Source: an uncultured bacterium (GTDB lineage: Bacteria > Babelota > Babeliae > Babelales > Vermiphilaceae). From it: a stretch of 64,000 bases of DNA. A program made the translations under genes and the position numbers. Below are positions 19,060 to 45,387 of the stretch, piece after piece; position 1 is the stretch's first letter, and every line of letters begins with the position of its first letter. The notes beneath the pieces are model-generated. The model ran no database searches. It had not been told where the DNA came from and saw only the letters and a list, made by a program, of their open reading frames with translations. The stretch is from positions 768,001 through 832,000 of the forward strand of contig OY968764.1 of NCBI GenBank assembly GCA_963695335.1, given 5' to 3'.

Positions 19060-21003
19060 TTACGTTATAACTGGGAAGGCCGTTAATATTTTAAATCCAC
19101 ATTCTTGAGTAATATCTTTTTCTAACACAATTTTTGAATTTATCAAATCATAAAATGGTTTTTTTTTGCCTTTAAGAATTCCATTGCCAATTGAATATTG
19201 ATGCGAAAATTCCAAAACAATTTGATCTTTTAATGGATCGTTAAACCATGAAGCTATTTTTTCTGCATGATGTTTTAAATTTTCTTTTACAGCTTTTGTA
19301 GCTATTCGTTTAGAAGTAAAAGTTGTTGCATTTTTCACTTCATCTTTAATAATTCTGAACATTAACTCATCATATGTTTTAGCAATATGTCTTTCTAGTG
19401 TATGTCCACCAGCTTTTTCCATAATATCCAAAATATCATCGCTAATATGGCGTATTTTTTGAACAATATTTTCCGACCACTTTGCTTGTGTTATTGTATT
19501 TTTTATTTGCGGGGAAATGGCTTCAGTGCTTTTGGCGAAAAGCATAGATTCATTTTTAATAAGATCTGCCACTTTAGTTGATACTTCCGCCCCCTCTTCA
19601 ACAATCAATTTACCAAAACCAGCAACTTCAACAGCATATTGTTCAGTGAGTAGCGCGCCAGATTCGAGTGCGTTGTTTAATTCTTTGATAACCAGATTAC
19701 TTGTTGCACGACTAAAGCCATTAATTGCATTGAGCGCTAAAGTATCCAAGATGAGAGTTGTGCCAATTTCCGTGCCATGTTCAACAATCTCTTGCCAAGA
19801 CATTCTTTTAATTTTTGTATATGTTTCTTGCGCGCATTTATGGATTGCATCTTTTTGTGCTTGTGTATACGAGCAATATTGTTCTGCTGCAACAGTTAAA
19901 GCTTCAGTGTTATCTGTTGTTGCTGATAAAACCATTGCATAATGGAGTGCATCTTCTTGTCCTACCGCATCAGCAAATAATAAACCTAGTTGAAGAGCGC
20001 CAGTCGCCATGCCTTTCCAATGTTCAATAGTTGCAAAATCATGTGCACCTTTTACAATTCCTTTACCAATGGCGGATGATGTATCATAGAGAATGTGCAT
20101 TCCGTTTTCTAAAACTTGCGTAATGGTATGGCAAAAGTCTGAAAGCTCAAATGCTTTTAAAGGGCAGTGTTCGTTTTTTGCTTGTGTAGTATAACGGTAC
20201 ACAACAGGAGCTAAGATTTGCACATGAGGATCATGGGAATATGTGCGTTCAAGATAATTCATTTTGTTGCGCGTGTGGGATAATTCTTTATGCAGTTGGT
20301 TATCAAGCGCTATTTTATTGTTTTTGTGTGTCTGTTCGATTGCAGCAAGACGATTGCGTAGTCGCTCATGATTGTTATTTGAATATGTAGTATCAATTTT
20401 TCGAGTGCAATGATGAGCTAATGTATCAAGAGTTTGAGTGTTATTAATATGTAAAGTTCCTTTTTTTTCAGTAGTTTGATGATTGCGAATAATATTAGTT
20501 TCATGTTCTATAAATTTGTGAAATTCTGACGGATTAAAACCGGGAATATGGGTAGTGTGTGTTTTAAAATTTTTATCGGTTTGTACTTTAGAGTGGAGCG
20601 CGAGTATAAATTCGTTGTAGCATGGCAAATTGCGCGCAAAAGAACGAAAATTTGGGTATGCATATAATGCATAATTGTTTAAAATATCATATTTGTTTGT
20701 AACCGATGCAAATATGTATTGAAAGTCAGACACAGACATATAAGCAATATAGGGATTATAATAACTGTTTTTATTGTATGTGTGATGATTATTGTAGGAA
20801 GGCTGGATAGGGTGAATATTATAACTAAAATTAGTTTTAAGAAAATTTTTACATGTATGATGATTAGTATCAGGATAATTGTCAGAAGTAGACCAATGCA
20901 TTGTAACTTCGGGTGTATCAGATGATTTGCTTAAAGAATATGCACAAGAAAATAAGCTTAAAAGCAAGAAAAGGATGTAATTTTTTTGTAGTAGTTTAAT
21001 CAT
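19060..21003 (-). CDS. Secreted polymorphic toxin with C-terminal CdiA-type RNase A-like domain
   Basis: Signal peptide; C-terminal AGGHTLERHI...L.FR...ATTF...IASW...IG.G...KIVL...GFKILTAFP. Confidence 0.75.
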   Translation of the reverse strand: MIKLLQKNYILFLLLSLFSCAYSLSKSSDTPEVTMHWSTSDNYPDTNHHTCKNFLKTNFSYNIHPIQPSYNNHHTYNKNSYYNPYIAYMSVSDFQYIFASVTNKYDILNNYALYAYPNFRSFARNLPCYNEFILALHSKVQTDKNFKTHTTHIPGFNPSEFHKFIEHETNIIRNHQTTEKKGTLHINNTQTLDTLAHHCTRKIDTTYSNNNHERLRNRLAAIEQTHKNNKIALDNQLHKELSHTRNKMNYLERTYSHDPHVQILAPVVYRYTTQAKNEHCPLKAFELSDFCHTITQVLENGMHILYDTSSAIGKGIVKGAHDFATIEHWKGMATGALQLGLLFADAVGQEDALHYAMVLSATTDNTEALTVAAEQYCSYTQAQKDAIHKCAQETYTKIKRMSWQEIVEHGTEIGTTLILDTLALNAINGFSRATSNLVIKELNNALESGALLTEQYAVEVAGFGKLIVEEGAEVSTKVADLIKNESMLFAKSTEAISPQIKNTITQAKWSENIVQKIRHISDDILDIMEKAGGHTLERHIAKTYDELMFRIIKDEVKNATTFTSKRIATKAVKENLKHHAEKIASWFNDPLKDQIVLEFSHQYSIGNGILKGKKKPFYDLINSKIVLEKDITQECGFKILTAFPVIT

Positions 21004-21075
21004 GGATATTTCCCTTTTTATGTTTTGGGGAAGTATACATAATTAAACTATTTTTTGCTAAATTTACTTTATAAG

Positions 21076-21105
21076 AGGGTGATCAATGATCACCCTTATT
21101 TTTTT
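21076..21105. terminator. Hairpin between the two toxin genes
   Basis: AGGGTGATCA-A-TGATCACCCT with a T run on the plus strand. Confidence 0.45.
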
Positions 21106-21125
21106 GAGTTTTGATTACAAATAAC

Positions 21126-21659
21126 TTATTTCACAGGATATGCTGATATAACCTCTGGTGTACCTTGAAATGTATTTATTTGTATTTTTGTTTCGCCTTT
21201 TGTTCCAACAACTCTTCCCATATTTATGATATATATATCACCTTTGCCGTTGGGGTTTGCCTGTGGATTGCCTCTGTTACTCCATGCTTCATCAACCAAA
21301 TCTAATATTTGGTAGTCAGGAACACTAAAAACAGTATGATTTGCTTTTTTAGGATCAGCTTTAGCATGTGCCAATACATGATTGATTCGATTATGTAAGT
21401 TTTGATTTGATTTATACACTAATCCAGCTGATGATGTCCATGTATTTGTACCCACTGGAGCAGGTTGAACCTGTATAGGTTGAACTGGCGCTGGTTGAAT
21501 TGGTGCTGGAATTATTGGTATTACAGGTTGTGTTGGCATCGGTTGAATTGGCGCTGGACGAGTCGGCTGTGCTGTTGGTTTGCCCATTTGTTTAGTATGG
21601 GTTGGTGTGATGATGAAAAAGGTTGTGAGCAGCACTATTTTTTTGAAAATAGTTTTCAT
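21126..21659 (-). CDS. Small secreted protein: signal peptide, Pro/Gln linker and nuclease-toxin-like domain
   Basis: NRINHVLAH...HTVF...LVDEAW...VGTKGE...VISAYPV, a pattern resembling C-terminal domains of RHS/CDI-type toxins. Confidence 0.62.
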   Translation of the reverse strand: MKTIFKKIVLLTTFFIITPTHTKQMGKPTAQPTRPAPIQPMPTQPVIPIIPAPIQPAPVQPIQVQPAPVGTNTWTSSAGLVYKSNQNLHNRINHVLAHAKADPKKANHTVFSVPDYQILDLVDEAWSNRGNPQANPNGKGDIYIINMGRVVGTKGETKIQINTFQGTPEVISAYPVK

Positions 21660-21708
21660 AAGAATTTCCTTTTTTTGTAATTAGAGTTTGTTTGAAAATT
21701 TTAACCCT

Positions 21709-21857
21709 CCGCTCGTCCTGAGTGTTTTTTTGTCTTCAAAAAAATGTATCGAAGGATGCGGATCAACAAAAATATTGAATTAAAAAAATCTTTTTCATGT
21801 TGCACCCTTCGATACATTTTACTACGTTTCACTTCGTAAAACACTCAGGGCGAGCGG
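21709..21857. repeat. Long variant of repeat A (inverted pair with extended internal hairpins)
   Basis: CCGCTCGTCCTGAGTGTTTT...TGTATCGAAGG ... CCTTCGATACA...AAAACACTCAGGGCGAGCGG. Confidence 0.8.
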
Positions 21858-21940
21858 CGGGGAAGTAATTAAAAAATTTAGTTTTAAGTTAAGTTTTTAA
21901 CAGCCTGACATAAATGTACACCAGGCTGTTTTTGATTTGT

Positions 21941-23350
21941 TTAGAGTAGCTCACCTGCAAGTCGACTTAATTCACTACGCTCACTGACAGGCAAGAACAC
22001 TGAACCAAACAGTGGTTGTCCTTTGAAGCGTTCACTGGCAACAACCAAACCGTTGCTTGCAAAATCAAGATATGGTGAATCAATTTGATATGGATCACCG
22101 GTTAAAATGATTTTACTTCCTTCACCAACACGCGTAACTAATGTTTTAATTTCATGCGGTGTTAAGTTTTGCGCTTCATCAATTAAAATGAGTTGATAAG
22201 GAATAGTACGCCCACGCATGTAGGTGATAGCTTCGAGTGAAATTTTGCCTTGATGAATTAAATCTTCAAAGGTAATACCGTGATGTTTTTTGTGTTTATG
22301 TTTACCTTTATGATTGTGATTATGTTTACCACCACCTTTATGACTCGGTTCATCTTCTTCTTTTGTTTCTTGAAATTTATTTGATTTGTTGATGGTGTGC
22401 ATGATGTATTGCATATTATCATAAATTGGCATCATCCAGCTTTGCAATTTTTCTGCCACAGTTCCTGGTAAAAATCCAATATCACGACCAAGTGGAACAA
22501 CAGGACGGGAAATAATCATGCGATCATAATTTTTGTTCACAAAGAGTGAATGTAATCCTGCAAGAAGCGCTAAGAATGTTTTACCGGTACCAGCTGGACC
22601 AAATAAACATGCAAATTGAATGCTCGGGTCGAGCAGAAGTTCCAAAGCCATTAACTGTTGTGCATTACGTGCTGCAATTGGCCAGTTGAGTGTTGGGTTG
22701 ACTATTGGTTTAAATTTATCACCACCAAGATAACGGAACACGCGATTATTATGTGGGTTGTTGTTGCTTTCTACTAAAACAAATTCATTTGGTGTAATTA
22801 TTTTATCTTTAGCAAGTCCGACAAGTTGTGGAGGGAAATCTTTTTTGAGTTCTACTGCAGGGACAGATATTTGTACCCATCCTTGGTAGAATACTTTTTC
22901 TGTTACTGTTTCTTTTGAATAATCTTCTGTTGCAATCCCGATAGCATCTGCCTTAACACGCGCATTAAGATCTTTAGAAATAAAGATCACATCGTACCCA
23001 TCTTGTTTCATACCAAGCGCGGTAAGTAAAATGGTGTTGTCTTCAGTTGCTGCTCTGATAAGGGGAGTTTTTTCTAATTTAGTATCATCATAAAAAAGAA
23101 TTTGGAGGGTACCTCCACCCTCCAAAGTAACTCCATCACGTAAAGATCCTCGTTCTCGTAGCTCATCGAGGGATCGTATAGTTTGGCGTGAATTACGACC
23201 GCGTTCAGTTCCCTCCCCTTTGAATTGATCAAGCTCCTCAAGAACAGTTGCTGGTATACCAACATGCGCACCATCAAAGCTGAACATTGCTTTTGGGTCA
23301 TGTATGAGAACATTGGTATCCAGAATAAAGATTTTTTTGTCTTTAGGCAT
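21941..23350 (-). CDS. PhoH-family protein (PIN domain plus PhoH ATPase)
   Basis: LDTNVLIHDP, GPAGTGKT, RGRT, IDEAQN, GDPYQID, RSELS. Confidence 0.92.
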   Translation of the reverse strand: MPKDKKIFILDTNVLIHDPKAMFSFDGAHVGIPATVLEELDQFKGEGTERGRNSRQTIRSLDELRERGSLRDGVTLEGGGTLQILFYDDTKLEKTPLIRAATEDNTILLTALGMKQDGYDVIFISKDLNARVKADAIGIATEDYSKETVTEKVFYQGWVQISVPAVELKKDFPPQLVGLAKDKIITPNEFVLVESNNNPHNNRVFRYLGGDKFKPIVNPTLNWPIAARNAQQLMALELLLDPSIQFACLFGPAGTGKTFLALLAGLHSLFVNKNYDRMIISRPVVPLGRDIGFLPGTVAEKLQSWMMPIYDNMQYIMHTINKSNKFQETKEEDEPSHKGGGKHNHNHKGKHKHKKHHGITFEDLIHQGKISLEAITYMRGRTIPYQLILIDEAQNLTPHEIKTLVTRVGEGSKIILTGDPYQIDSPYLDFASNGLVVASERFKGQPLFGSVFLPVSERSELSRLAGELL

Positions 23351-23511
23351 CTTTCATCCCATGTTTAAGGGTTATCACTACTCTCGCTTGCAGCGTAGCA
23401 CAATGAGTTTGAGTGAAGCAATGGATGCGCTCCCCCTTATCTGTTTTTAATCTTTGTGGTATTCTTTACGTATATTTGAAAAAATAATTATTTTAAAATA
23501 TTTGATGGTTA

Positions 23512-23685
23512 CCGTTCGATATGTTTCGACCCGCCTTCGCTAAAGCTGCGACGGGCAGGCGGGCGTTTACTACTGAGTAAAGACGAAGTGTCAACACGAA
23601 CGGGTTAATTTAGTTTAATTAGTTCGTCCTGCTATGTCCTACGAAGCCTTGGCGAAGTAGGAAGCCTGTCGAAGGATATACGAAC
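23512..23685. repeat. Two nested A/B composite repeats in the thrS leader (23512-23603; 23622-23685)
   Basis: B copies at 23530-23560 and 23632-23662 interrupt A arms. Confidence 0.85.
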
Positions 23686-23701
23686 GATAATAGGATTCAT
23701 T

Positions 23702-25405
23702 ATGCACGAAAAAGATTTATCAGTATTGCGCCATTCGGCAGCCCATCTCCTTGCACATGCAGTTAAAGAACTGTTTCCGTCAACAATTTTAACCATCGGT
23801 CCAGCAACAAAAGAAGGTTTTTTTTATGATATGTTGCCGGAAAGAAATTTTAAAGATGAAGATTTAGTTCGCATAGAAGAAAAAATGCATGAACTTTCAC
23901 GTCAAAATATTCCGCTGACGCATAAACAAATTTCAAAAGATGTTGCGCGTGAAATGTATAGTAACAATCCATTCAAACTTGAACTGATTAATGACATTCC
24001 TGGTGATACAGTAGGTCTTGCCGAGCAAGGTGATTTTTATGATCTGTGCCGCGGTGGGCATGTTGCATCAACAGGTGATATTAAGTTTTTCAAATTACTT
24101 TTCATTTCTGGTTCTTACTGGCGCGCAGATAAAGATAAACAACCGTTGCAACGTATCACCGGTACAGCATTTTTTACACAAGAAGATTTGCAAGCATTTT
24201 TACAACAACGTGAAGATGCGATTCAATTTGATCACCGGAGACTTGGTAAAGAGCTGGATCTCTTTTCATTTCATGAAGAAGGTGTTGGGTTTCCGTTTTT
24301 CCATCCACGTGGAACCATTGTTTTGAATGAATTAATGGCTCATGTCAGAAAATATTTAAGAAAAGCTCGCTATCAAGAACTTTCAACTCCCGTTATGTTG
24401 AGTGATGAATTATGGCGTAGATCTGGGCATTATCAACATTATAAAGATAATATGTATTTTTCTATGGTTGAGGGGCATTCTTATGCACTCAAACCAATGA
24501 ACTGTCCTGCAGCTATTTTGGTATATAAAGAACGCCCACATTCGTATCGTGAATTACCATTACGTTGGTCAGATTTTGGAACTTTGCATCGCCATGAACT
24601 TTCTGGAGTTTTGAGTGGACTGTTTAGAGTACGTTCATTCCGTCAAGATGACGCGCACATTTTTTGTACGCCAGAACAGATAGAAAAAGAGATCGTAGAT
24701 TTTATTGCAGTGCATGATGAAGTTCTTAAACCGTTTGGGTTTGGCAATATTGTGATAGGTGTTTCCACTCGTCCTGCAAAAGCTATGGGGAGTGATGAGT
24801 TATGGGAAGTTGCAACAAAAGCTTTGATCAATGGACTTGATAAAGCGGGAAAAACATACGCAATCTATGAAGGTGAAGGCGCGTTTTATGGGCCTAAAAT
24901 AGAGTTTGGTATTGAAGATTCATTAAAACGTGTGTGGCAATGTGGTACTATTCAAGTTGATTTCTTTCAACCGGAAAATTTTGATTTGAGTTACATTTCT
25001 CCTGAAGGTACAAAGGCACGACCAGTCATGTTGCATCGCGCAATTTATGGATCATTTGAACGTTTCTTTGGAATTATTTTAGAACATTTTAAAGGTCGTT
25101 TACCATTCTGGTTGTCACCAGTTCAGATGAAAATTTTAACAATTACTGATGAACAAAAAGAGTATGCGCACCAGATTATGAATCAGCTGTTTGATTATGG
25201 TGTGCGTGTAGAAATTGATAACTCTTCTGATCCTATTGCTGGTCAAATTAAACGTGCGCAACTTGAGCGTGTGCCGTTGATGGTTGTGATTGGTAAAAAA
25301 GAGGTGGAAAATAAAACGGTCACATTGCGTGATTTGGATGGCAAGCAAGAATTTGGAGTCAGTTTTGAAGCATTATTGCAAAAAATTGATGCGCTCAAAA
25401 TATAG
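23702..25405 (+). CDS. thrS: Threonine--tRNA ligase (no N-terminal TGS domain)
   Basis: RHSAAHLLA, DLCRGGH, DHRRLG, KPMNCP, QDDAHIF, FYGPK, HRAIYGSFERF. Confidence 0.97.
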   Translation: MHEKDLSVLRHSAAHLLAHAVKELFPSTILTIGPATKEGFFYDMLPERNFKDEDLVRIEEKMHELSRQNIPLTHKQISKDVAREMYSNNPFKLELINDIPGDTVGLAEQGDFYDLCRGGHVASTGDIKFFKLLFISGSYWRADKDKQPLQRITGTAFFTQEDLQAFLQQREDAIQFDHRRLGKELDLFSFHEEGVGFPFFHPRGTIVLNELMAHVRKYLRKARYQELSTPVMLSDELWRRSGHYQHYKDNMYFSMVEGHSYALKPMNCPAAILVYKERPHSYRELPLRWSDFGTLHRHELSGVLSGLFRVRSFRQDDAHIFCTPEQIEKEIVDFIAVHDEVLKPFGFGNIVIGVSTRPAKAMGSDELWEVATKALINGLDKAGKTYAIYEGEGAFYGPKIEFGIEDSLKRVWQCGTIQVDFFQPENFDLSYISPEGTKARPVMLHRAIYGSFERFFGIILEHFKGRLPFWLSPVQMKILTITDEQKEYAHQIMNQLFDYGVRVEIDNSSDPIAGQIKRAQLERVPLMVVIGKKEVENKTVTLRDLDGKQEFGVSFEALLQKIDALKI

Positions 25406-25460
25406 AATATGATCTGCATATCACAATCCCTTGTTATCATTATGATGGTGGCAAGGGATT

Positions 25461-26432
25461 TTATTTTTCAGCAGGCGTAATTAAATTTTTACAAACCATT
25501 TTTTGTGCAAAATAATAGTTCAATGTTTTTTGTGGTAGTGTATTATTTGCTAATGTTGTGGTGAGTGGAATTATTGCGTGATGTAGAACATCTTTATTAG
25601 TGCTACGATCGCGGTCGACTTTGTGCATAATCAGATGAGTACCTTGTTTATTAAATGCTATGGTTTCGCAAGAACCAGGAATTTTAGGAAAAATAGGGTA
25701 TTCTTTTTTTTGAGTGAGTAAGTTTTTGATTTTTATGGGAGTTTTCCATCCAATTATATTATCTATTTTTTTAAGATAGAGTATTGCATAAATGTTGCCG
25801 CAAGAAGAAATAGTCAGATTCTGAAAATATTTTTCTCGACGTTTTGTCTTATCTTTTTTGTAAGCAGAAATATTATGAATTTCTTCATTTGTTTTGGTAT
25901 TAACAATTGATAAGGTGTCAACTTTAAAGCTTTTATGAGAAACATATGTCATGGCGCACATATTTTTGTCTGGGGAATACACAGTTAAAAGGACATGAGT
26001 ACCTAAAATCGCTTTATGTTTTAGTAACCAGGTCAATGGCATAACCCTATCTTTACGAAACCTTTCTTCTGTTGGTTCTTCTGGAGAGACCTCTTCTTGA
26101 GAGTTTTCTACTTCTTTTTTGTACATTCTTATAAATATTGGTTTGGAACCTTCTGAGTCAGAACCAAAGTCCATTTCTTCTTCTTTCTCTATGACAACTG
26201 TTTTTGTTTTAGAGTAGAAAGATTTGGGGTACGATGAAGGGCCTTTTTTACGGTTAATAAATTCTTCTTCTGTTTCAACATCATCAAATGTCAAAAAGCT
26301 GGCGATATAATTCATGAGATCAGCCGGCATGTTTGCAAAAAAACATGGAGGGTTTTCTGGCTGCATGGCATTGAGGTGTGTGGAAATAGTGAGTGTGATG
26401 ATAAAGATGAATATATTGTTTTTCATGAGCAT
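25461..26432 (-). CDS. Secreted protein with F-box-like motif and WD40/beta-propeller-like segments
   Basis: Leader ending LNAMQ; FANMPADLMNYIASFL; YSPDKN, ISSCGN, AFNKQGTHL. Confidence 0.5.
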   Translation of the reverse strand: MLMKNNIFIFIITLTISTHLNAMQPENPPCFFANMPADLMNYIASFLTFDDVETEEEFINRKKGPSSYPKSFYSKTKTVVIEKEEEMDFGSDSEGSKPIFIRMYKKEVENSQEEVSPEEPTEERFRKDRVMPLTWLLKHKAILGTHVLLTVYSPDKNMCAMTYVSHKSFKVDTLSIVNTKTNEEIHNISAYKKDKTKRREKYFQNLTISSCGNIYAILYLKKIDNIIGWKTPIKIKNLLTQKKEYPIFPKIPGSCETIAFNKQGTHLIMHKVDRDRSTNKDVLHHAIIPLTTTLANNTLPQKTLNYYFAQKMVCKNLITPAEK

Positions 26433-26493
26433 TTCTTTATTATGTATTTTACATTGCCCATAAGTATAATGCTTAAATTGTCATAAAAAAAGT

Positions 26494-28371: not shown

Positions 28372-31065
28372 ATGTTTTTTTTAGAATATATAGAATCAAT
28401 CCTTGGTTCTTTTTACTTTATTTTACCAGCCACTCTTTTATCTTTTTTTCTTAAACTAGGTATTTTAATTGCTTTAGTAAGAAAAACTGCGCATATGGAA
28501 AGAGTAATTAAACCACTCTTCTTCTTGGTTGCCATTCTTATTGGTAATATGTTTTCCGATTTAGCTTGGATATTAAAATTATCACAATTACTTTTTCTAC
28601 CTCAATTGAGTTATCAGATTATTTTATTTATCATACGTTCTGCATGGATATTTTTTATGGTTCAATACCAATCCATGTCATTATTTGTAGAAAGTTTGGT
28701 GACTGATAGATATATTATTTCCCTAAGACAAAAATGTTTGGTCTTTATTAGTAGTATATTTGGTTTATTTTTTGCAATAGCAGCTATTGTTGATTTTAAT
28801 TGTATAGACCCATCCCGTAGAAAATTTAGTTTTGAGCCAACAATTCAAAATCTTGCTACATTTTATGCCTTATTTATTGTTGTGTTGCCAAGTTTGTGTA
28901 TAGCAGTGCAAAAAATTAGATCTTCCGAGTTGCCTCATTTGCTCAAAAAGCAACTTAAATTGTTAATGCAAGGTCTTATAGCGCCTGTTTTTATGGCAGA
29001 TTTAATTCAAGGGTTTCCTTTTAAGATATATGGCATTACATGGATTGCACATACTTATGCGGGCGTTGGGTTTTCCACGATCCTTATTACGTGTGCCATT
29101 TATTTCTGCGCCCGTAAAATTTTTGGATTACGTTTCTTGAATCTCAAAAACCATGTATATCAGCCGATGAATATTAATTTTATTGATGAATTTAAAGGCG
29201 TGTTAGAAAAGTTGAGTAATGTGACTAATTTGCGTGAGCTTGGTCATATTACCCAAAATTTTTGCAAAGAAACCTTTGGTATTCCTGCCAATAAAACACG
29301 TCTTTATTTAAGAAAGATGGATCCAGTTGAAGATAGTACAACATCTCTTGTAGAAACATTCTTGGTAACACATAGCGAGATCATTGAACGTGCTATGCGT
29401 AATGAAAAAGTTCTTATTTATGATGAGATCGATTTTACTCATTTTTACCATGCATGTGAAAAAAGTGAGATTATTCTGAAATTCTTGGGCACGATTAATG
29501 CCGACATTTTCTTGCCGATTTATGAGAATGAAAAACTGATAGCATACATTATTGTTGAGCGGCATGCGCGTAAGCAGCATTTTTATAGTAATGTTGAGCG
29601 TGATGAACTTATTGTTTTCGCAAGTTACCTCGGCAATATCATTAACTTATTGCAGAATAAAAATTTGGACCTTCTCCTTGAACAATCACAGCTCTTGCGT
29701 GATGAGTTGTATGGTAAACATCAAGAGATTGAGCAATATAAAGAAAGTATGCGATCATTTTTGCGTAGGCATAAAACAAAACATATTGGCATTCTGTTTT
29801 ATAAAAACAGACAATTTTCATATGGTAATCATGCCGCTAAAGAGTTGGTTGATGTTAATATTAATCAGCAGCATGGCCATCCATTGGTACAATGTTTGCG
29901 TGATTTGGTGAGGCAAGTTGAATCATTTAAAGCACCAAAGACGGTGTTTGTCAGGGACGGTAGTGATAATCAGCTTGTTGTTTCTGCAGTACCGCATTTA
30001 GAAAAAAGTACTATTATTATCACTGTTTCATACCCATCTATTGCTGACACCATCAAGCACCATGTTGATTTATTAAAAGATCCAAGCGAATGGGATTATT
30101 TGCTGTATTTGCAAACAACACAATCTGGTAAGCTGATCAATCAGCTGATTCCTGGATCGGGGCCAATATTATTGAATTTTAAGATACAGCTGCTGAAAAT
30201 TGCATTGAGTAAAAAGGCTATTTTACTCGAGATGCCTGAACAAGATTTACAGCCTATGGCGGAGATTTTGCATCATATTAGCATGCGAGACGATTTGCAT
30301 GTGATAACGTTGCAAGGCCCATCACACAATTATGATATTGCGATTACATTGTTTGGTATTAATCCAGTTTTTGGCGTGCAAGAAAAATATGGCCAACCGT
30401 TGCTGGAAAAGCTTGATAACGTTGGTACCTTATTTATAAAAAATATTCACTTCCTTGATTTGGAAACGCAAGAATGTTTGGCAACATGTATCCGGTCTGG
30501 CACGTATAATTTGTTCAAAAGCGACCAGAGAATGACAAGTAATGTGCGTATTATGTGCTCAACTAATCAGAATTTAAACGTGTTGATGCAAGAAGGTAAA
30601 TTCAGTAAGGCACTGCTCCAAGAACTTAAATCAACGGTGGTAACCATGCCTTCATTGCTCACACTTCCTGAAGATGAGTTGCTTTCTTTAACAGAAGGTT
30701 TTACACAACAGGCATTGATGTCAGATGCTTTGCAACATGTGTTAGCACTCACTGATAAAGAAAAAGATTCACTTGCTGATCATCGGCCAATCAGTTTGCA
30801 AGAGCTGAAATCTCGTATCCAGCAACTTCTTGTTAAAAAGTCTAAGAAAAATCATATCTATCAAGAAGTTGAGTTTGATCCTACGTATGATATTACCGAT
30901 CCTGGTCTTGTTGAAGCTGCACGTCTTGGTAAAAAAGCATTGCAAGAGCCACGGGTGATGGCATTGCTGTGGAATAAGTTCAAAAATCAAAATAAAATCG
31001 CATTTTTCTTGGGTGTTAATCGTTCTTCTGTTAATCGTCGCTGTAAAGAGTATAATTTAATTTAG
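28372..31065 (+). CDS. Multi-TM membrane sensor fused to GAF-like, degenerate sigma54-activator AAA+ and HTH domains
   Basis: About 7 hydrophobic helices in the first ~250 aa; IFLPIYENEKLIAYI GAF-like strands; GTLFIKNI and VRIMCSTNQNL...GKF; C-terminal NQNKIAFFLGVNRSSVNRR HTH. Confidence 0.75.
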   Translation: MFFLEYIESILGSFYFILPATLLSFFLKLGILIALVRKTAHMERVIKPLFFLVAILIGNMFSDLAWILKLSQLLFLPQLSYQIILFIIRSAWIFFMVQYQSMSLFVESLVTDRYIISLRQKCLVFISSIFGLFFAIAAIVDFNCIDPSRRKFSFEPTIQNLATFYALFIVVLPSLCIAVQKIRSSELPHLLKKQLKLLMQGLIAPVFMADLIQGFPFKIYGITWIAHTYAGVGFSTILITCAIYFCARKIFGLRFLNLKNHVYQPMNINFIDEFKGVLEKLSNVTNLRELGHITQNFCKETFGIPANKTRLYLRKMDPVEDSTTSLVETFLVTHSEIIERAMRNEKVLIYDEIDFTHFYHACEKSEIILKFLGTINADIFLPIYENEKLIAYIIVERHARKQHFYSNVERDELIVFASYLGNIINLLQNKNLDLLLEQSQLLRDELYGKHQEIEQYKESMRSFLRRHKTKHIGILFYKNRQFSYGNHAAKELVDVNINQQHGHPLVQCLRDLVRQVESFKAPKTVFVRDGSDNQLVVSAVPHLEKSTIIITVSYPSIADTIKHHVDLLKDPSEWDYLLYLQTTQSGKLINQLIPGSGPILLNFKIQLLKIALSKKAILLEMPEQDLQPMAEILHHISMRDDLHVITLQGPSHNYDIAITLFGINPVFGVQEKYGQPLLEKLDNVGTLFIKNIHFLDLETQECLATCIRSGTYNLFKSDQRMTSNVRIMCSTNQNLNVLMQEGKFSKALLQELKSTVVTMPSLLTLPEDELLSLTEGFTQQALMSDALQHVLALTDKEKDSLADHRPISLQELKSRIQQLLVKKSKKNHIYQEVEFDPTYDITDPGLVEAARLGKKALQEPRVMALLWNKFKNQNKIAFFLGVNRSSVNRRCKEYNLI

Positions 31066-31066
31066 A

Positions 31067-31237
31067 CGCTCGAAGATACCCTTCGACAGGCTCAGGGCGA
31101 GCGCCTAAAATATTGTTGTATAGATCAATAAATTTATATTTCTTAGAGTTCGTATGCTTCGACAGGCTCAGCACGAACGGGACAAGATCTATTTTCCCGC
31201 GCTCGTCCTGAACTTGTTGAAGGATATCTTCGAGCGC
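31067..31237. repeat. Cluster of three repeat-A monomers (31067-31104, 31148-31180, 31199-31237)
   Basis: CTTCGACAGGCTCAG core twice, and inverted GCGCTCGTCCTGAACTTGTTGAAGGATATCTTCGAGCGC. Confidence 0.88.
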
Positions 31238-31253
31238 TAAAAAGAGAGTAGTT

Positions 31254-37585: not shown

Positions 37586-37610
37586 AGTACATCTGACCTT
37601 GACTTAAATT

Positions 37611-37814: not shown

Positions 37815-37948
37815 GATGAATACCTTACTTTAAAGCCTATTTATTTATCTTTTAAGATATCAAAAAGAGAAAATTTTACAAGTTTTTTCCCTAATCTCCA
37901 CTGGGGTCCCCATTGTAATGAAGTGAAAATGGGGTTTAAAAGATGGGG

Positions 37949-39781
37949 TTAAATTAACTTATGTGCCTGTCTTGGCTCTATACCCAATAAAGCATAGATT
38001 TCATCAGCATGCATGGTCTCTTTTTCAATCAAAGCGTTAGCCAATATATCCAGCTTATCACGATTGTTTTTAAGCAATGCGTACGTCTGTTCGTGATAAA
38101 GTTTGGTTAAACGTTGTACCTCAGCATCGATTTTTTCAGCAGTTTTTTGAGAATATTCAAAATCACCATGTTGCTGGCTATAGATGATGGTACCTAATTC
38201 ATCGGACATACCATAATGGGTTACCATATTACGAACTATGCGGTTTGCTGCCTGAAAATCGCTATATGCGCCCGTGGTGAGCTTATTGAATATTATTTCT
38301 TCTGCCACGCGGCCACCAAGTGCCGACATGACTGATGCTTCCATCTCTTCTTTGCTCGTGATGTATTTTTCACGTTCAGGTAAGAAATGTGTGACACCTA
38401 ATGCAGATCCACGAGGGATAATGGTTACTTTGTGCAGCGGATCAGATGTTTCCGGTAATAAAAGACGCACAAGGGCATGGCCAGCTTCATGGTACGCGAT
38501 GAGTTTTTTGTCTTCATCAGTGAGCATGATACTTTTACTTTCTTTACCGAGCATCACTTTATCGCGTGCTGCATCAAAATCATGGATAGTTACGATATCT
38601 TTATTTTCTTTTGAAGCAATGATAGTAGCTTCATTAACCAAGTTGGCAAGATCTGCGCCAGAAAACCCTGGGGTTCCTTGAGCGATCTTTTTGACATCAA
38701 GACCTTCTTCAGCCATAACATTCTTGATGTGTACGCCAAGAATTGCTTCACGGCTTTTTAAATCTGGGTAAGGAACAGTCACGATGCGGTCAAATCTTCC
38801 TGGGCGCAAGAGTGCTTTATCCAAGACATCTTTTCTATTGGTTGCAGCAATAACAATTACCGGAGTTGGAGATGTTTCAAAACCATCCATTTCAGCAAGG
38901 AGCTGGTTGAGCGTTTGTTCGCGCTCATCATTGCCGCCACCCATGCCACTGCCACGATGACGTCCAACAGCATCAATTTCATCAATAAAGATGATGCTTG
39001 GAGCATGTTTGCGTGCTTGTGCAAAAAGATCACGGACACGTGCAGCGCCTACGCCAACAAATACTTCGATAAAATTTGAACCGCTGATACTAAAGAATGG
39101 ACAGTTTGCTTCACCAGCAACGGCGCGTGCTAATAATGTTTTGCCGTTTCCTGGTTCACCCACCAGTAATACTCCGCGAGTAATTTTGGCACCAAGGCGT
39201 TCGTACTTCTGAGGATTTTTAAGAAAGTCGATAACATCTGCAAGCTCTTCTTTTGCTTCATCAGCACCAGCTACAGAGCTAAAGCGTTCTTTGATGCTTG
39301 CAGGCAAGAACATACGAGCACCACTTTTACCCATAGTAAAAATATTGCCACCACCACCATTGGCACCAGCGCTGCGAGAGCGGATAAAGTACCAAATAGC
39401 CCAGATAGCAACAAATAAACATGAGAATAAAAAGAGGTACCAGATACCCAGTTGATTGGTTGGTGAAATGACTGAAAATTCTACATTATGTTTACGTAGA
39501 CGGTCCCAATCACTCGCATTATTACCAATAACTGTTTCAAAGCGATTACCATCAGTAAAGAGACCTTCAACATCTTGCCCCGAAATATATACTTTTTTAA
39601 TGAGGTTTTGGTCGATCTTTTCTAAGAAGGTGGAATAAGAGATAACTTGAACATTTCTGCCGAGCTCAGTTAATTTATGCAGCACTAAAAGGACGCCTGC
39701 AAGAATAACAAAGGTAACGATAGCATTTTTGAGATTTTTTGGACTTGGGGTCCAGAATTTATTATTTTTGGGTTTTTTCAT
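37949..39781 (-). CDS. ftsH: ATP-dependent zinc metalloprotease FtsH
   Basis: Two TMs, [25 protein letters not shown]. Confidence 0.97.
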
Positions 39782-39869
39782 ACAAATTCATCTGCTTTTT
39801 GAGGTTTATGAGGATATTACGAGTAAAATACCATTCTTATAGTAACACAATCATGAATTTTGTCGATGC

Positions 39870-41150
39870 CTAGCTTACCACAGGAAAATTCTGATACGTT
39901 GGTCCCCAGTGAGGGTAACTGCAAATATCTTGAGCATTTGTTATATATTTTGTTGTATGCGTGAGGAGATTAAGCGTGCAAAGTTGACTGTTTTTACCTG
40001 GAATTTCATGCGCAAACAGCAGCTGCGTTCCACAGGGCGACCAACTGGCTTCATGTTTATCGCCCGCGTTTTTAGTTAATTGTGTATGTGTTTTGGTTGC
40101 GCAATCATAGACCATAACTTGCATGGCACCTTGAATCATTTTGTGATAAGAAATTTTATGAGTCTTTGGGCAGTAGCTTGGTGTGGTGCAATATCCGCCA
40201 TGAGTGATGCGTTGTAAATGTCCTGTTTGCAGATTGCCGATATAAATTTGTGGATTACCTTTTTGAAAATCTGAACAAAAGCAAAGATGATGTTCATCAA
40301 TAAAAATAGGTGACGTATTATTTCCCGTGTTTTGTGTGCACCGTTTTAAGTTGCCATCATCAACAAGATAAATCTGACAACTTCCACTGCCGCGAGAAGA
40401 GCAATAAGAATATGATTTTCCATTCGGGGAATAGCAAGCAAGCATGTTGATACCATCAAAATTGGCAACTGGTTTTCTTTTCTTATTCATAGTAACGGAC
40501 ATCAATTCAACATTGGTGTTGGCATACTCTGAATATAAAATACGTGGTTCTGTGGTGTGCCAACGTGGTGCAACCGTAATAGTTGGTAGATTAACGAGTA
40601 ATTCTTCATTGCTGCCATCAAAATCTGCTATATAAATTTTTCGTAATGATTTACCGGCATCATTTTTTGAATCTTTACAATATGCAATGCGTGAACTGAA
40701 AAAGCCTTGATTCCCGGTTAATTTTTGGAATGTTTCATTTGCAACCGTATGCGCCCATTCACGTGCAAGAGTATTTTTTTTACTTTGTTTTTTTCCACAT
40801 ATCATAGTGCATTGCATGGTATCATATAATCGCCATGCGATACTGTTTTTTGATTCGCTGCTGATACATAAGGCAAGCGGTGTTCCGCAATTGCACAGTT
40901 GTTGCATATTTTTTTTGAGAACTTTGCTTGATGTATTTGCATCGTATTTTGTGATGGTAGCTTTAAATTGATCGGTAAATTGTAAATCTTTTTTGATAGT
41001 TGCGGCAATATCATTGAGCTGATTGTTTTTGCCATCAAGTACGATGATTGCGATTGGCATTTGCGTTTGTTGTGCACCAGAAATGGTTAATGCAATATCA
41101 TTTGCTTGCGCAGAAAATATGATCCATAAAAAGAGATACAATTTTTTCAT
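39870..41150 (-). CDS. tolB: Tol-Pal beta-propeller protein TolB
   Basis: Signal peptide from MKKLY; LTGNQGFFSSRIAY, IADFDG, PD40-like repeats; synteny. Confidence 0.85.
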   Translation of the reverse strand: MKKLYLFLWIIFSAQANDIALTISGAQQTQMPIAIIVLDGKNNQLNDIAATIKKDLQFTDQFKATITKYDANTSSKVLKKNMQQLCNCGTPLALCISSESKNSIAWRLYDTMQCTMICGKKQSKKNTLAREWAHTVANETFQKLTGNQGFFSSRIAYCKDSKNDAGKSLRKIYIADFDGSNEELLVNLPTITVAPRWHTTEPRILYSEYANTNVELMSVTMNKKRKPVANFDGINMLACYSPNGKSYSYCSSRGSGSCQIYLVDDGNLKRCTQNTGNNTSPIFIDEHHLCFCSDFQKGNPQIYIGNLQTGHLQRITHGGYCTTPSYCPKTHKISYHKMIQGAMQVMVYDCATKTHTQLTKNAGDKHEASWSPCGTQLLFAHEIPGKNSQLCTLNLLTHTTKYITNAQDICSYPHWGPTYQNFPVVS

Positions 41151-41158
41151 GAAATTCC

Positions 41159-41791
41159 TTATATGCATTCAAGTTCTTTAATTTTTGCATCTATTTTTTG
41201 CAATAGAACTCTACTTTCGTAGAGAGCAAGGTCATTAGTACCAAGAATAAACCAAATGCATTGCTCAAATATTTCATCAATAGACATTTGAGTAAGTTCA
41301 ATAGGGAGATTGCTGTTGCGGCATATTTGACAATGTTTAGTGAAAAGAGACTGTAATAATGTTTGTAACTGTCTTGTTGTGTCTTTATCAAATTTTGACT
41401 TTGCATACGGAAGAAGATGATGAGATATTTCATCGAGAGTAAGAGGTTTTATATGAGTGCATATGAAGTTAAAGGCAGGAGTTACTCGTTCTGATGTCTT
41501 TTGTTGTAAGTGAATAGAGCTTTTGTAAAAATCGTCACTCAGGTTGCAACAAAAAATCATTCCCGTTACTTCTTCTATATCTTCTGGTGATTCGCAATCA
41601 TCGAAATCCAGCATAAGTTCTTCCCATCTATCATGCATAGTTTTCAGATGCTTTTGTAATGTAGCTTTAACATTTTGCAAATGTTTCAATAATTGGGTTT
41701 TGTTTATTTGTTTGCTTGGTATGGGATTGGTAATGGCAAAAAATGAGATAGAGCTCAGTGTTAAAAAAGCTGCGAATAGATGCTTGTTCAT
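41159..41791 (-). CDS. Hypothetical exported protein
   Basis: Signal peptide; GGAG RBS. Confidence 0.6.
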   Translation of the reverse strand: MNKHLFAAFLTLSSISFFAITNPIPSKQINKTQLLKHLQNVKATLQKHLKTMHDRWEELMLDFDDCESPEDIEEVTGMIFCCNLSDDFYKSSIHLQQKTSERVTPAFNFICTHIKPLTLDEISHHLLPYAKSKFDKDTTRQLQTLLQSLFTKHCQICRNSNLPIELTQMSIDEIFEQCIWFILGTNDLALYESRVLLQKIDAKIKELECI

Positions 41792-41847
41792 CGTGGTTCT
41801 CCAAATGTTTTAAAAATGTTTGTGCGTAATTGTATCATGCCTGTTTA

Positions 41848-42697
41848 GGTTCTGTTGAGTTTTTGAAAAGATAAGTTTTGAAGTATGATAACACCGAAAA
41901 AGCAAAAACCAAATCACTAAAACGGTGCTATCATGAAAAAAGAGTATATCAGCGAAATGGCCTGGAGCAAAATTTTTAATTTTTTAAAACAGCAAAAAAA
42001 CATTTATATAAAAGAAGAAAAGGACTGTAAAAAGTTTATAGAAGGGACATTTTGGATGGCAAGAACAGGAGCACAATGGAGAGAGTTGCCGGAAAAATAT
42101 GGAAATTGGAATAGTGTGTTCAGCAGATTTAATGCTTGGTCAAAAAAACATATTTGGGAAAAATTACTCAGTTTTTGTGCAGAGGATCCCGATATGGAAT
42201 ATGTAATGATTGATGCCACGATAGTCCGCGCACATGCCTGTTCTGCTGGATATGATCAATTTAAAAATGAAGGACTGGGAAGAAGTAAAGGTGGTTTTAC
42301 AAGTAAGATACATGCAACAGTAGATGCTTTAGGCAATCCTTTAAGATTTGTTATTACTCCTGGTCAGCGTAATGATATTACTCAGGCTGATATTTTATTA
42401 AAAGATATTTCTGAATCATATGTAATAGCGGATAAAGGATATGATTCCACTGAATTACGTTCGAAATTAATAGAAAAAAATTGTGTTCCCGTTATTCCTC
42501 CAAGATCCAATCGTAAAGAACAATATCAATATGATGAACATCTATATAAAGAGAGACATGCGATTGAATGCTTGTTTTCAAAGATAAAACACTTTAGAAG
42601 AGTGTTTGCTCGTTTTGATAAATCGGCACGAAATTTTTTATCTTTTCTTTCTTTTGTGGGAACTTGCATATGGTTACGATGAAAACTCAACAGAACC
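41848..42697 (+). mobile_element. IS5-family (IS427-like) insertion sequence, intact
   Basis: IR GGTTCTGTTGAGTTTT / AAAACTCAACAGAACC; TA on both sides (41846-47, 42698-99); exact ends ambiguous by a few bases because the palindrome extends into the flanks. Confidence 0.88.
41933..42682 (+). CDS. IS5-family transposase (single ORF)
   Basis: RTGAQWRELP..YG.W, IDATIVRAH, GRSKGG.TSKIH, ADKGYD, YKERHAIE. Confidence 0.93.
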   Translation: MKKEYISEMAWSKIFNFLKQQKNIYIKEEKDCKKFIEGTFWMARTGAQWRELPEKYGNWNSVFSRFNAWSKKHIWEKLLSFCAEDPDMEYVMIDATIVRAHACSAGYDQFKNEGLGRSKGGFTSKIHATVDALGNPLRFVITPGQRNDITQADILLKDISESYVIADKGYDSTELRSKLIEKNCVPVIPPRSNRKEQYQYDEHLYKERHAIECLFSKIKHFRRVFARFDKSARNFLSFLSFVGTCIWLR

Positions 42698-42718
42698 TAA
42701 AATCAGTAAGTTTTTCAT

Positions 42719-43519
42719 TTAATCAAATTTATATATTTCTAAAAGATTTTCTTGAGGGTTAGAAAGATTGCTACTTAAGATGACAAAATGATTATCATTA
42801 AGAAATTTTGCTCTTAAAAAGATATAATCTACATGAGGTTTTAAAATAATTTTGTCTTGCTCGTTAATTATTTCTATTTTTTTTTCATGAATAAATAAAA
42901 ATATATTATTACTACATTCAACGTCATGCCATCCCTTACTGAATCCCGTAACAATATGTTGCTTGTCTTGTTGGAAATTAAAAAAACTTACAATACTACT
43001 GCTTTGGAAAATGAAAGATTGTTTGTTTGGATAAAATGTTAAAATATTGTATTTCCTGCATATATTCCAAAAATCAAAAAATGAAGGATAATCTTTTTCT
43101 ACTGTATCGCTAGATACGGGATGTAATTTGTTTGATGTAAAATCCAATTGATAAAAGTTATCATTAAGGGTTGTTAGGATAAGAGTATTATTATTCCAGT
43201 AATAATTTGGTGAAAGTATTTCTTCGTTAAAATCTTTAGGTAGAGTGATGGTATAGGGGGTAGGTGTTTTTAGATCTGTATAAATTATTTGATGAGCATC
43301 TGGTAAATAGAGAATAATAGCGCTACCATCATATTTTTTGTAGACAGAATATATAGAGGCTTTTTGTGGAATAACTAATTTTCTTTGAATGTGTAACGAA
43401 TTATCAAGTAGTAGTAGTCCTTGATTGTTATCGTTAATAATGATTGTGTTATCATAATTATCTAAAATATAGATATCATTTTTTTTAAAGTACAATTCAG
43501 CCGTTTTTTGAGTTGTCAT
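42719..43519 (-). CDS. Candidate immunity protein (beta-strand rich, no signal peptide)
   Basis: Starts 8 bp after the toxin stop; very AT-rich; no recognisable family. Confidence 0.5.
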   Translation of the reverse strand: MTTQKTAELYFKKNDIYILDNYDNTIIINDNNQGLLLLDNSLHIQRKLVIPQKASIYSVYKKYDGSAIILYLPDAHQIIYTDLKTPTPYTITLPKDFNEEILSPNYYWNNNTLILTTLNDNFYQLDFTSNKLHPVSSDTVEKDYPSFFDFWNICRKYNILTFYPNKQSFIFQSSSIVSFFNFQQDKQHIVTGFSKGWHDVECSNNIFLFIHEKKIEIINEQDKIILKPHVDYIFLRAKFLNDNHFVILSSNLSNPQENLLEIYKFD

Positions 43520-43527
43520 ATTATTGC

Positions 43528-45387
43528 TTATTTCAGATTTAGTTTTTTATTTTTGTCTGCAGTATTTTTGATCAATTGTCCTGTAATAGGATCAGCTTCT
43601 CCAAGATGTATTCCCTGTTTGTTATAAACTTCTAAATGGGCACCTTTTCCTCTGTGAAGAGTGTCTCGGTGATAGAATAAGTTGTCTTTTGTATATACTT
43701 GAGCACCTTTTACTGGGGCTATTTTTGTTTTTTTAAAATGAGTGCTATGCAAAACGATTTCTCGATCTAAAGGTATGCGGTTTTGTTGAATAAATTCTGG
43801 AATTATTTTTTCAATACTATTCTTTAAACCTGATGCCGTAGCTTGTCCCGATCGCTTTAACTTATTGGCATTTGTTGTGGCTTTAAACAGCAACCCTTCA
43901 GGGGTTGTAAGATATTCTTGTGGATTGAACAGAGAACTGTTTTTTGCAAAGGTAATACTTTTTTGTTTAATTGTGTTGCAGAATTTTCCTAATCCACCAA
44001 GTAATCTACTTTGCGCCATTAAGCTGACGCCAACCGCGGTACCATTTTTAACTGCATCGCGTAATGATATTTCTTTGTTATAGATTCTATCAATGACACT
44101 GTTTAATGGTTCAGCGTAATGATTCCATTTATCCTTTGCTTTATCAATATTGGTTATTGCAGTAAACCCAATATCTGCAACGTTATAAAGAACTTTGGAG
44201 AGTTGATATGCAAGTAACGGTTTGCTTGCAACCATAGAAACTGTTGCTTCAATAGGATTGTTCAGAATATCAGTGACTGCTGATTGTATGCCAATTGCAG
44301 CACCTTCAGCAACTGCTTGGCCGTAATCAAGCAGTGTCCAACAAAAATCGGCAATAGTAGTTGCTTTATCGGTAAGACCTTTATGGTTGCAATCAACCAT
44401 TGCCACAGTAAAATCGATTAATGCTTCTTGATGATCATACAAAACTGAAGTTGGTGATAGATGATCAATACGATTAAGTAAATCGAGTGATTCTTGATGA
44501 AGTGCATGTTGTAGTTTATTACCAGAGCATTGTGTAAAACATACTGCGTCATAGTTATATTTATGCAATAATTGCTTAACATTGTTATTGAGATTGTATG
44601 ATGTACTTGTGTAGTGCAGAAAATTATCAGCTCCTGACAAATTATGATATGCATCTAACCGTTTATTAATTGCGGCTGATAATGAAGGCGCATATTCTTG
44701 ATAAATAGATTGTAATTCTTTGTATTCAGATGTTTGTGTTTGAAATGTCTCAAGAGAATGATCGCGCAGAACTGGTTCATTACAAACTGGTTGCTCATGC
44801 TTAAGGTTCTTTAATTGATTGTATAAATAGTGGATGCGTTCTTGTAGGCCTGAGCAATAAGTACCTTTGATGGAGTACCAAATTTTTTGCAACCAATGAA
44901 GATTTTTTAATTCAGCATGTAGCTGTTGGATGGTGCATTTGTAACCTGAATATGTTTGTGTATATTTTACGAATTCATCAAACATATACAAACAGCGCTG
45001 ATTAAGTATTTGGCTTTCTGTGTATCCGTGTGACGAAAAATGTTTTTGAAAATCTTGAGCGTTATATTGTTTAAAATGCTGTTTATAAGAAGGTGATGTG
45101 TTGATATTGTTCCGTAATGGATCATGGGAAAAATCAGCATGTGATGTATGTCTATCATTTTTATAATTTGTTTGATGCCAGGAGTGAACTATTGTGGCAT
45201 GAGAATCTTTTGCAGTGATGGGGATAGATAATAGAGTGACAAAAAATGTATATGATAGATTCCTCTTTGCGCTCGTTCTGAACTTGTTGAAGAATATCTT
45301 CGAGCGCTCTAAGATACCCTTCAACAGGTTCAGGGTGAGCGCATAGATTGTAAAGATAGGTTTATATGGTGCATTCATTTTCATCAC
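43528..45387 (-). CDS. Secreted polymorphic toxin with C-terminal colicin E3-like rRNase domain
   Basis: C-terminal YHRDTLH...HLEVYNKQGIHLGEADPITGQ; trunk aligns with 19060-21003. Confidence 0.75.
   Translation of the reverse strand: MMKMNAPYKPIFTIYALTLNLLKGILERSKIFFNKFRTSAKRNLSYTFFVTLLSIPITAKDSHATIVHSWHQTNYKNDRHTSHADFSHDPLRNNINTSPSYKQHFKQYNAQDFQKHFSSHGYTESQILNQRCLYMFDEFVKYTQTYSGYKCTIQQLHAELKNLHWLQKIWYSIKGTYCSGLQERIHYLYNQLKNLKHEQPVCNEPVLRDHSLETFQTQTSEYKELQSIYQEYAPSLSAAINKRLDAYHNLSGADNFLHYTSTSYNLNNNVKQLLHKYNYDAVCFTQCSGNKLQHALHQESLDLLNRIDHLSPTSVLYDHQEALIDFTVAMVDCNHKGLTDKATTIADFCWTLLDYGQAVAEGAAIGIQSAVTDILNNPIEATVSMVASKPLLAYQLSKVLYNVADIGFTAITNIDKAKDKWNHYAEPLNSVIDRIYNKEISLRDAVKNGTAVGVSLMAQSRLLGGLGKFCNTIKQKSITFAKNSSLFNPQEYLTTPEGLLFKATTNANKLKRSGQATASGLKNSIEKIIPEFIQQNRIPLDREIVLHSTHFKKTKIAPVKGAQVYTKDNLFYHRDTLHRGKGAHLEVYNKQGIHLGEADPITGQLIKNTADKNKKLNLK
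45269..45342. repeat. Repeat-A doublet, in frame in the toxin N-terminus
   Basis: GCGCTCGTTCTGAACTTGTTGAAG...CCTTCAACAGGTTCAGGGTGAGCGC. Confidence 0.9.

Follow-up and report, generated by a model that had tools for sequence, protein, structure and literature searches.

Two putative toxin genes and their downstream neighbours

The DNA analysed here (hereafter the window) is a stretch of 64,000 nucleotides of contig OY968764.1 (assembly GCA_963695335.1, positions 768,001 to 832,000 of the forward strand) from an uncultured bacterium of the phylum Babelota, and it carries two genes, designated T1 and T2, whose products join a common trunk to different C-terminal domains (tips). At the positions given in the initial annotation, the two open reading frames (ORFs) are found on the minus strand, at 19060..21003 (T1, 647 amino acids, aa) and 43528..45387 (T2, 619 aa), and a further gene starts 18 bp after T1 (I1, 18505..19041, minus strand) and 8 bp after T2 (I2, 42719..43519, minus strand). 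The genome of the window (G000) contains four trunk genes in all, with four different tips.

T1 is a full-length toxin gene composed of a leader (20929..21003) whose basic start and hydrophobic stretch make it a likely Sec signal peptide by a heuristic applied to the sequence, a trunk (aa ~85-466; 19606..20751) predicted to be all-helical and lacking about 28 aa of its core, a linker, and a bacterial CdiA-CT RNase A-like tip (aa 533-644; 19072..19407). T2 is likewise full-length, with a leader, a trunk (aa ~103-502; 43882..45081) in which an N-terminal helical domain, a core helical bundle and Gly-rich amphipathic helices run up to a TPEG end, and a colicin E3-like nuclease tip (43531..43812); all these features are on the minus strand. 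Hydrophobic leaders had been proposed for both proteins and are present in both, although that of T2 has to be redrawn: its hydrophobic stretch begins only near residue 46, because a palindromic repeat of about 80 bp (45256..45350, minus strand) lies in frame within the leader.

A trunk shared across the phylum Babelota

Direct comparison of T1 and T2 by pairwise BLAST gave a best expectation value (E) of 0.021, which is not significant. The family profiles, on the other hand, were significant in every direction: the hidden Markov model (HMM) of the T1 family matched T2 at E 2.2e-13, the T2-family HMM matched T1 at E 1.4e-8, and profile-profile alignment of the two families with hhalign reached 99.0% with E 5.5e-18 over 356 columns. 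By these profiles the trunks of T1 and T2 are homologous, even though the sequence pair alone would be insufficient for such a statement, and the trunk similarity first noticed by eye is thus significant. Five inner pairs of the colinear motifs on which it was based are in register in the hhalign alignment; the outermost N-terminal pair appears only in a weak BLAST segment and in a loose global hhalign alignment.

Searches with the trunk only yielded 37 homologs from T1 and 109 from T2. By the same kind of heuristic, a hydrophobic leader was found in 144 of 173 near-full-length homologs (5, 0 and 0 in control windows), and a lipobox-like motif in two of the 173. No Hint domain had been seen in the initial annotation, and this holds for T1 and T2 but not for the family as a whole, since 3 of the 96 homologs scanned carry a Pfam Hint domain, placed ahead of the trunk instead of ahead of the tip (P0142, P0244 and P0224, the last of 2093 aa). 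A dedicated search for long fused forms returned none, and was insensitive, since three such forms are known from the profile search.

At E<=1e-8, a joint profile of both families matched 94 of 261 Babelota/Dependentiae genomes, which represent 15 of 21 families; the profile contains tip columns, and the matches listed lie on the trunk, with 58 matches in the phylum outside the listing. Among representatives clustered at 50% identity, 973 proteins matched it at an E threshold of 1e-3 and 657 still did at 1e-10, taxa being read only among the 150 matches listed of those 973. Homologs with a named source belong to 'Candidatus Babeliales', and taxon records for 20 distant representatives yielded a single organism name, Babeliales. 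A pattern scan of all GTDB species returned 13 loci, eight of them titled Babeliales/Dependentiae and five matched by coordinates to genomes of the phylum. Two of these five, titled 'uncultured Pseudomonadota' (L010, L011), coincide with genomes G216 and G199, which GTDB places in the same family. A tblastn search of plasmids gave no match. Since the pattern scan reaches close relatives only, the trunk is likely, though not proven, to be restricted to Babelota.

In structural models, a disordered stretch is followed by an N-terminal helical domain and then by a core bundle in which R, G, H, E and D residues are near-invariant, and behind which Gly-rich, moderately hydrophobic helices, modelled partly at low confidence, extend up to a TPEG-like junction. 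The absence of a known delivery domain from the trunk, as first proposed, was borne out by the searches made. Pfam covered only the tips of T1 and T2 and left the rest of both proteins uncovered, and the trunk had no match in Pfam (to E 5), in NCBIfam or among PDB sequences. Pfam gave no match to RHS/YD, PAAR or VgrG in T1, T2 and the homologs scanned, none to two-partner secretion (TPS) domains, haemagglutinin repeats or VENN in T1, T2 or 96 homologs, and none to LXG among the matches listed; the type VI secretion sheath protein VipB was not found in G000 (94% complete). With full-length models, the best VIA-align fold match was a generic helical bundle (Z 6.8, root-mean-square deviation [rmsd] 2.6 Å, 93 residues), no trunk match reached Z>=8, and Foldseek gave no credible trunk match either (against colicin E3, E 0.05, template modelling score [TM] 0.09). 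Thirteen PHROGs families were matched, none in more than 3 of 59 members and without match positions being given.

ESM Atlas offered PT-TG (0.87) and MafB (0.85) as leads for the trunk, against a mark of 0.9, and the core alone reached at best 0.77. Both candidates were rejected. PT-TG (PF14449) matched in none of five trunk-bearing genomes at E<=1, and MafB-N/DUF1020 (PF06255) matched no trunk gene in the same five at that threshold, its one match (E 0.13) lying away from the trunk genes. PF06255 was also absent from the 25 listed of the 49 Pfam families found for 41 members.

Interchangeable nuclease tips

The assignment of the T1 tip to the CdiA-CT RNase A-like family was confirmed by PF18431 (E 9.6e-24), by a sequence match to structure 5E3E (E 3.5e-13) and by a fold comparison with the same structure (TM 0.92, rmsd 1.6 Å). 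The T2 tip had been placed in the colicin E3 family, and it passes the PF09000 cut-off of 22 with 23.2 bits (E 9.1e-5). Its residues R574, D575, H578, E586 and H594 are invariant in all 12 aligned sequences and correspond to the Tox-ColE3 motif 'R, Dxx+[HK], E, H' (PMC3482391). The T2 tip had no phmmer match to the PDB, and its fold matches were weak (4UDM, probability 0.97, E 0.77). Family assignment or predicted structure supports an RNase fold for each of the two tips.

From 235 proteins with a complete trunk end, and after dropping seven tips shorter than 90 aa, we obtained 228 tips, which fell into 31 clusters, 22 with at least two members; some singletons are possibly truncated, and two of the clusters are both E3-like. 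C-termini are thus highly variable among homologs, as expected at the outset. Tips differ even between similar trunks: among 319 pairs whose trunks are 70-89% identical, 250 carry different tips (the pairs are not independent), and the nearest trunks to T1 (85%) and T2 (83%) both bear other tips. On a FastTree phylogeny of 209 trunks with 30 tip states we counted 130 tip changes, the minimum being 29 and shuffled labels giving at least 159. The point of exchange is the conserved TPEG/EVAG junction. In a genome of the same genus as the window (G251), the site between tolA and tolB that holds T2 has the same order of genes, tolA-toxin-hypothetical-tolB, with another tip and another downstream gene.

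Eight Pfam toxin families were at or above their cut-offs among the tips (RNAse_A_bac, Cytotoxic, Ntox17, Ntox21, Ntox35, EndoU_bacteria, CdiA_C and Colicin_D), and many tip clusters had no Pfam family at all. Cassettes of a truncated trunk plus a tip are present at two loci (L026 and L030). At a further locus (L063, G232:C1 1004000-1020000), four full-length trunk genes with three tip types stand in tandem next to HTH and SpoVG-like genes, suggesting a mobile island.

Downstream genes follow the tip

For 44 of the 48 distinct complete trunk genes in the fetched loci, an ORF lies in the interval from -50 to +60 bp; the remaining four either stand at the edge of their locus or have a cut-off tip. 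Hydrophobic leaders are lacking in 41 of these 44 neighbours. The neighbour family is shared in 35 of 49 pairs with the same tip and in 6 of 897 pairs with different tips, a contrast reached by none of 1000 shuffles (kin are not independent), and all six exceptional pairs are between the two E3-like clusters. The family of the neighbouring gene therefore tracks the tip and not the trunk. Most of these partners belong to no Pfam family.

The adjacent leaderless genes proposed as immunity genes of T1 and T2 are present, with an amendment for the first: I1, the likely cognate immunity gene of T1, is a fusion of a CdiI_2-like N-terminal part (E 8e-4, below the cut-off) with a CxxC domain that forms a separate gene at two other loci (L043, L085). 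One other trunk-gene neighbour passes the CdiI_ImmP cut-off. I2 is a leaderless protein of 266 aa without a Pfam family and is likely an immunity protein for E3-like tips. Fifteen of the 261 Babelota genomes encode I2 homologs; besides the window, these stand directly behind E3-like tips in five loci, several are in arrays behind other tips, and two adjoin unrelated genes. Prediction of the complex between the T2 tip and I2, from alignments built in this analysis, scored 0.80 against 0.01 for the best control. The mark applied had been attained by 116 of 157 solved pairs and by 2 of 215 mismatched ones; runs agreed in at least 90% of contacts, and the partner had a predicted local distance difference test score (pLDDT) of 90. 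The predicted interface covers the DxxH motif, which supports binding of I2 to the T2 tip over this motif.

The fetched loci contain 59 further distinct ORFs of immunity families that are not directly behind a trunk gene, some of which follow trunk-less tips. Altogether, a constant trunk of about 400 aa carries interchangeable C-terminal domains, each with its own downstream gene. The polymorphic-toxin architecture recognised in the initial annotation is hence present, and the family is a polymorphic toxin system by the genomic definition.

Insertion, likely displacement and repeats at the two loci

Locus 1 is an insert of 4.6 kb between phoH and a flotillin gene, which are separated by 73-229 bp in three relatives. 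Behind T1 are found, in order, the CdiI-like/CxxC fusion I1, an orphan remnant in which a CxxC immunity domain is fused to the C-terminal half of a cluster-12 tip (18062..18508, minus strand), and a second CxxC immunity copy with a frameshift near codon 37, due to decay or to a sequencing error (17822..18053, minus strand). On the other side of T1, a trunk-less secreted protein of 177 aa (21126..21659, minus strand) joins a leader and a proline-rich linker to a complete cluster-12 tip. Elsewhere the cluster-12 tip is carried on T1-type trunks, followed in one case by a CxxC gene (L074). Displaced tip and immunity remnants accumulate behind current cassettes, and the simplest reading of the gene order at locus 1 is that an RNase A cassette displaced a cluster-12 cassette. 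Other secreted proteins encoded in G000 (at 248467, 865421 and 388297) share the leader and linker of the 177-aa protein. The phoH-flotillin interval (17340-21940; L068-L071 in relatives) is a hot spot: the secreted proteins encoded there are short and variable and begin with MMKK. In G254 the interval contains a duplicated 3′ end of phoH.

Locus 2 lies in the host operon tolQ-tolR-tolA-[insert]-tolB (39870..47433, minus strand), which is outside the system and is split by the T2 cassette: the T2 start overlaps the stop codon of tolA, an IS5-family transposase (41933..42682, plus strand) stands within the cassette, and a hypothetical secreted protein (41159..41791, minus strand) is part of the insert. 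That protein is also found in G251 and is absent at the site in G257 and G253. Of 11 genomes of the genus, two have tolA and tolB separated by the insert. We considered import linked to Tol, given an E3-like toxin in a tol operon, and rejected it because 9 of the 11 genomes have at most 1.25 kb between tolR and tolB, because G251 has another tip at the site, and because most trunk loci lie elsewhere. We read the tolA/tolB gap as an insertion site, and not as a sign of a functional link.

Patchy cassettes at new sites, as in the tol operon, and insertion sequences (IS) in or beside several trunk loci would also suit selfish addiction or host-addiction modules, in which the gene pair mainly maintains itself or enforces dependence of the host and the trunk is no delivery device; a host-addiction idea has been proposed for Bodocaedibacter (PMC8163844). 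A secreted trunk of some 400 aa, mostly preceded by a leader and kept across 15 of 21 families, is however superfluous for addiction, and the immunity proteins have no leaders and therefore would not protect the host. We regard this explanation as improbable.

The repeat in the T2 leader is one of 76 loci of an approximately 80-bp palindrome in the genome, with a predicted hairpin of -45.2 kcal/mol, and it is absent from the close T2 homologs P0039 and P0040. Further copies in the window are at 2137-2214, 5221-5309, 10206-10283, 31061-31242 and 60316-60403. The palindrome occurs inside 12 ORFs of at least 200 aa, often near the N-terminus, and resembles the coding palindromes of Rickettsia.

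Other toxin-like genes were observed in the same genome. At G000:C1 619859-621034, 942418-943617 and 1061958-1063787, a second scaffold combines a leader, a Hint-like domain recognised by eye (ending in HN) and a linker with tips out of the trunk family's pool (E3-like cluster 18, Ntox21-like); small genes follow in each case, and the scaffold has no trunk match. Two insertion sequences interrupt a toxin gene at G000:C1 511698-517024, which has an EndoU-like tip, is accompanied by an immunity gene and encodes a body only weakly similar to long trunk proteins. A stand-alone cluster-14 tip, followed by a fused immunity-like gene and lacking a trunk, is located at G000:C1 1172322-1173171.

Proposed function and target

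We propose that T1 and T2 are probably members of a Babelota polymorphic toxin-immunity system acting mainly against bacteria, most likely related Babelota that compete for one protist host. In this proposal, the leader would route the toxin through Sec, and exit across the outer membrane might use type II/type IV-pilus-like machinery or outer-membrane vesicles; G000 encodes two secretins and two T2SSE-family ATPases, and the babelote Chromulinavorax appears to shed vesicles (PMC6561590). The trunk would bind the target, its Gly-rich amphipathic helices would help the tip across membranes, the tip would cut rRNA or tRNA, and cytoplasmic immunity would shield the producer and its clones. More tentatively, the trunk could be a phylum-wide receptor-binding and membrane-crossing module of uncharacterised fold and with its own entry mechanism, delivering at least 30 nucleases, many of unnamed families, into rival bacteria in one protist cell, and possibly also into the bacterium-like mitochondrion that surrounds them; we hold this broader version to be possible but doubtful.

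Several observations weigh against the proposal. The structural models are of low overall confidence (predicted TM scores of 0.50 and 0.32), and the trunk has no strongly hydrophobic segment, its best 19-residue hydropathy being 1.0-1.1. Displacement may simply have left some of the extra immunity genes behind. The T2 leader has been lengthened by the repeat insertion. The T1 tip retains the His, Arg and Thr of 5E3E, but the Tyr of the last strand, which we take to be an active-site residue (the roles of the other compared residues are assumed in the same way), is replaced by Phe; with the loss of about 28 aa of the core, this change means that T1 may be weakened. The target, moreover, is not readable from the sequence, because tips aimed at the host would also require immunity in the producer before export. 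Finally, the ortholog of the 177-aa cluster-12 protein in G257 (L066) stands alone, with no adjacent immunity gene.

Some of these points could be taken to mean that the family is real and that its T1 and T2 copies are decaying: besides the T1 core deletion and Tyr-to-Phe change, the T2 leader carries a repeat, an IS element stands next door, and the immunity copy at 17822-18053 is frameshifted. Both reading frames are intact, however; the core deletion is also found in P0002 and a similar form recurs in several other homologs; Phe occupies the same position in P0003 and P0004; the T2 motif residues are invariant; and leaders bearing the repeat are also present in P0041, P0047 and P0048. Decay of the two copies is accordingly the least probable of the explanations considered.

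The solitary protein of G257 would agree with some tips, at least, being directed at the host, and we consider it, together with the protein at 21126-21659, a candidate for host-directed reuse of a toxin tip. Extended to the whole family, this would make the toxins effector nucleases, which the bacterium exports into the protist and which cleave RNA of the host or its mitochondria for nutrient release, shut-off or lysis. Immunity would then serve only to guard the producer, and several tips would act side by side, an idea put forward for the Amoebophilus APD proteins. Babelota isolates are strictly intracellular (PMC12172432), Chromulinavorax replicates wrapped in a host mitochondrion and has signal peptides on 44% of its proteins (PMC6561590), and the four trunk genes with four tips kept at once in G000 point in the same direction. 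On the contrary, such toxins of intracellular bacteria are usually described without immunity genes in the part of PMC3482391 cited, whereas here 44 of 48 trunk genes have a tip-tracking neighbour; a bacterial arms race would account for the fast exchange of tips and for the surplus immunity genes, and all named tips come from families known in interbacterial systems. A mainly host-directed role is thus unlikely, if more plausible than addiction. In particular, the presence of surplus and tip-matched immunity genes alongside the toxins favours a bacterial target over one in host organelles. Action mainly against bacteria remains the reading that we prefer, and it suggests that intracellular parasites of protists fight rival bacteria with a toxin-delivery scaffold of their own.

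Intracellular bacteria have been thought rarely to keep toxin-immunity arsenals (PMC3482391), and a 2025 survey describes, in the part cited, its Babelota genomes as devoid of classical toxin-antitoxin systems (PMC12644861). A dedicated polymorphic scaffold in about a third of the genomes of the phylum makes competition for the host cell directly testable. In addition, the trunk can serve as a bait for discovery, providing candidates for new nucleases, each together with its antidote, because many tip clusters and most immunity partners have no Pfam family.

Comparison with known systems

Among contact-dependent systems, CdiA/CdiI resembles the locus in that the T1 tip has the same fold as the Yersinia kristensenii CdiA-CT (5E3E), I1 resembles CdiI_2 and one neighbour elsewhere is a CdiI_ImmP protein. 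CdiA proteins, however, are thousands of aa long, with haemagglutinin repeats, TPS and VENN, whereas T1 and T2 have about 620 aa and none of these, and no CdiB-like gene is adjacent in the window. Colicins E3 and D are alike in size, in a helical body with a C-terminal RNase and in adjacent immunity, and the trunk family includes E3-like as well as colicin D-like tips; they differ in release by lysis as opposed to a signal peptide, their translocation and receptor domains do not match the trunk, and the immunity protein of colicin E3 is the small Im3, in contrast to the 266-aa I2. The Gram-positive ABP/BetaH (S8-PepSY) toxins share Sec export, a constant N-terminal domain, RNase tips (ColD, Ntox21, Ntox35) and cytoplasmic immunity (PMC13460014); yet BetaH is a beta-sheet around a helix with a co-encoded serine protease (PMC13460014), whereas the trunk is predicted to be all-helical, the scanned neighbours in the window include no protease, and the producer is a bacterium with an outer membrane. 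Protist-intracellular alphaproteobacteria, namely Ca. Bodocaedibacter vickermanii (PMC8163844) and Odyssella, also have toxin-immunity loci and orphan modules, though in the part of the source cited these are few, and the GTDB-wide trunk pattern scan, which reaches close relatives only, returned only Babelota.

The closest parallels are the polymorphic toxins MafB, Microscilla-N and Amoebophilus APD1/APD2, which are exported via Sec/T2SS and likewise combine a signal peptide, a constant lineage-restricted domain and a variable toxin tip (PMC3482391) and draw on a tip pool shared with the trunk family (Ntox17, Ntox21, Ntox35, EndoU). MafB also has cognate immunity and orphan cassettes, but its domain PF06255 does not match the trunk, and the loci inspected, without a systematic count, showed no constant MafA-like partner ahead of the trunk genes; the upstream genes there were tolA, the 177-aa tip protein or variable ones. 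Amoebophilus APD proteins have a lipobox after the signal peptide and no immunity, unlike the trunk family, in which lipobox-like motifs are rare and immunity is present (no APD profile was compared). Each of these classes is confined to one genus or species, whereas the trunk family spans a whole phylum.

We found no account of the trunk family in the literature, searched chiefly as open-access main texts, and single members are already labelled by their tips at NCBI; it is apparently an undescribed large polymorphic toxin scaffold of an obligately intracellular phylum. Toxins with a signal peptide, a lineage-specific constant domain and a variable tip are, on the other hand, an already named category (PMC3482391, section 37), and its authors expected the class with lineage-specific N-termini to be more widespread. 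For this reason the scaffold is new and the principle is not.

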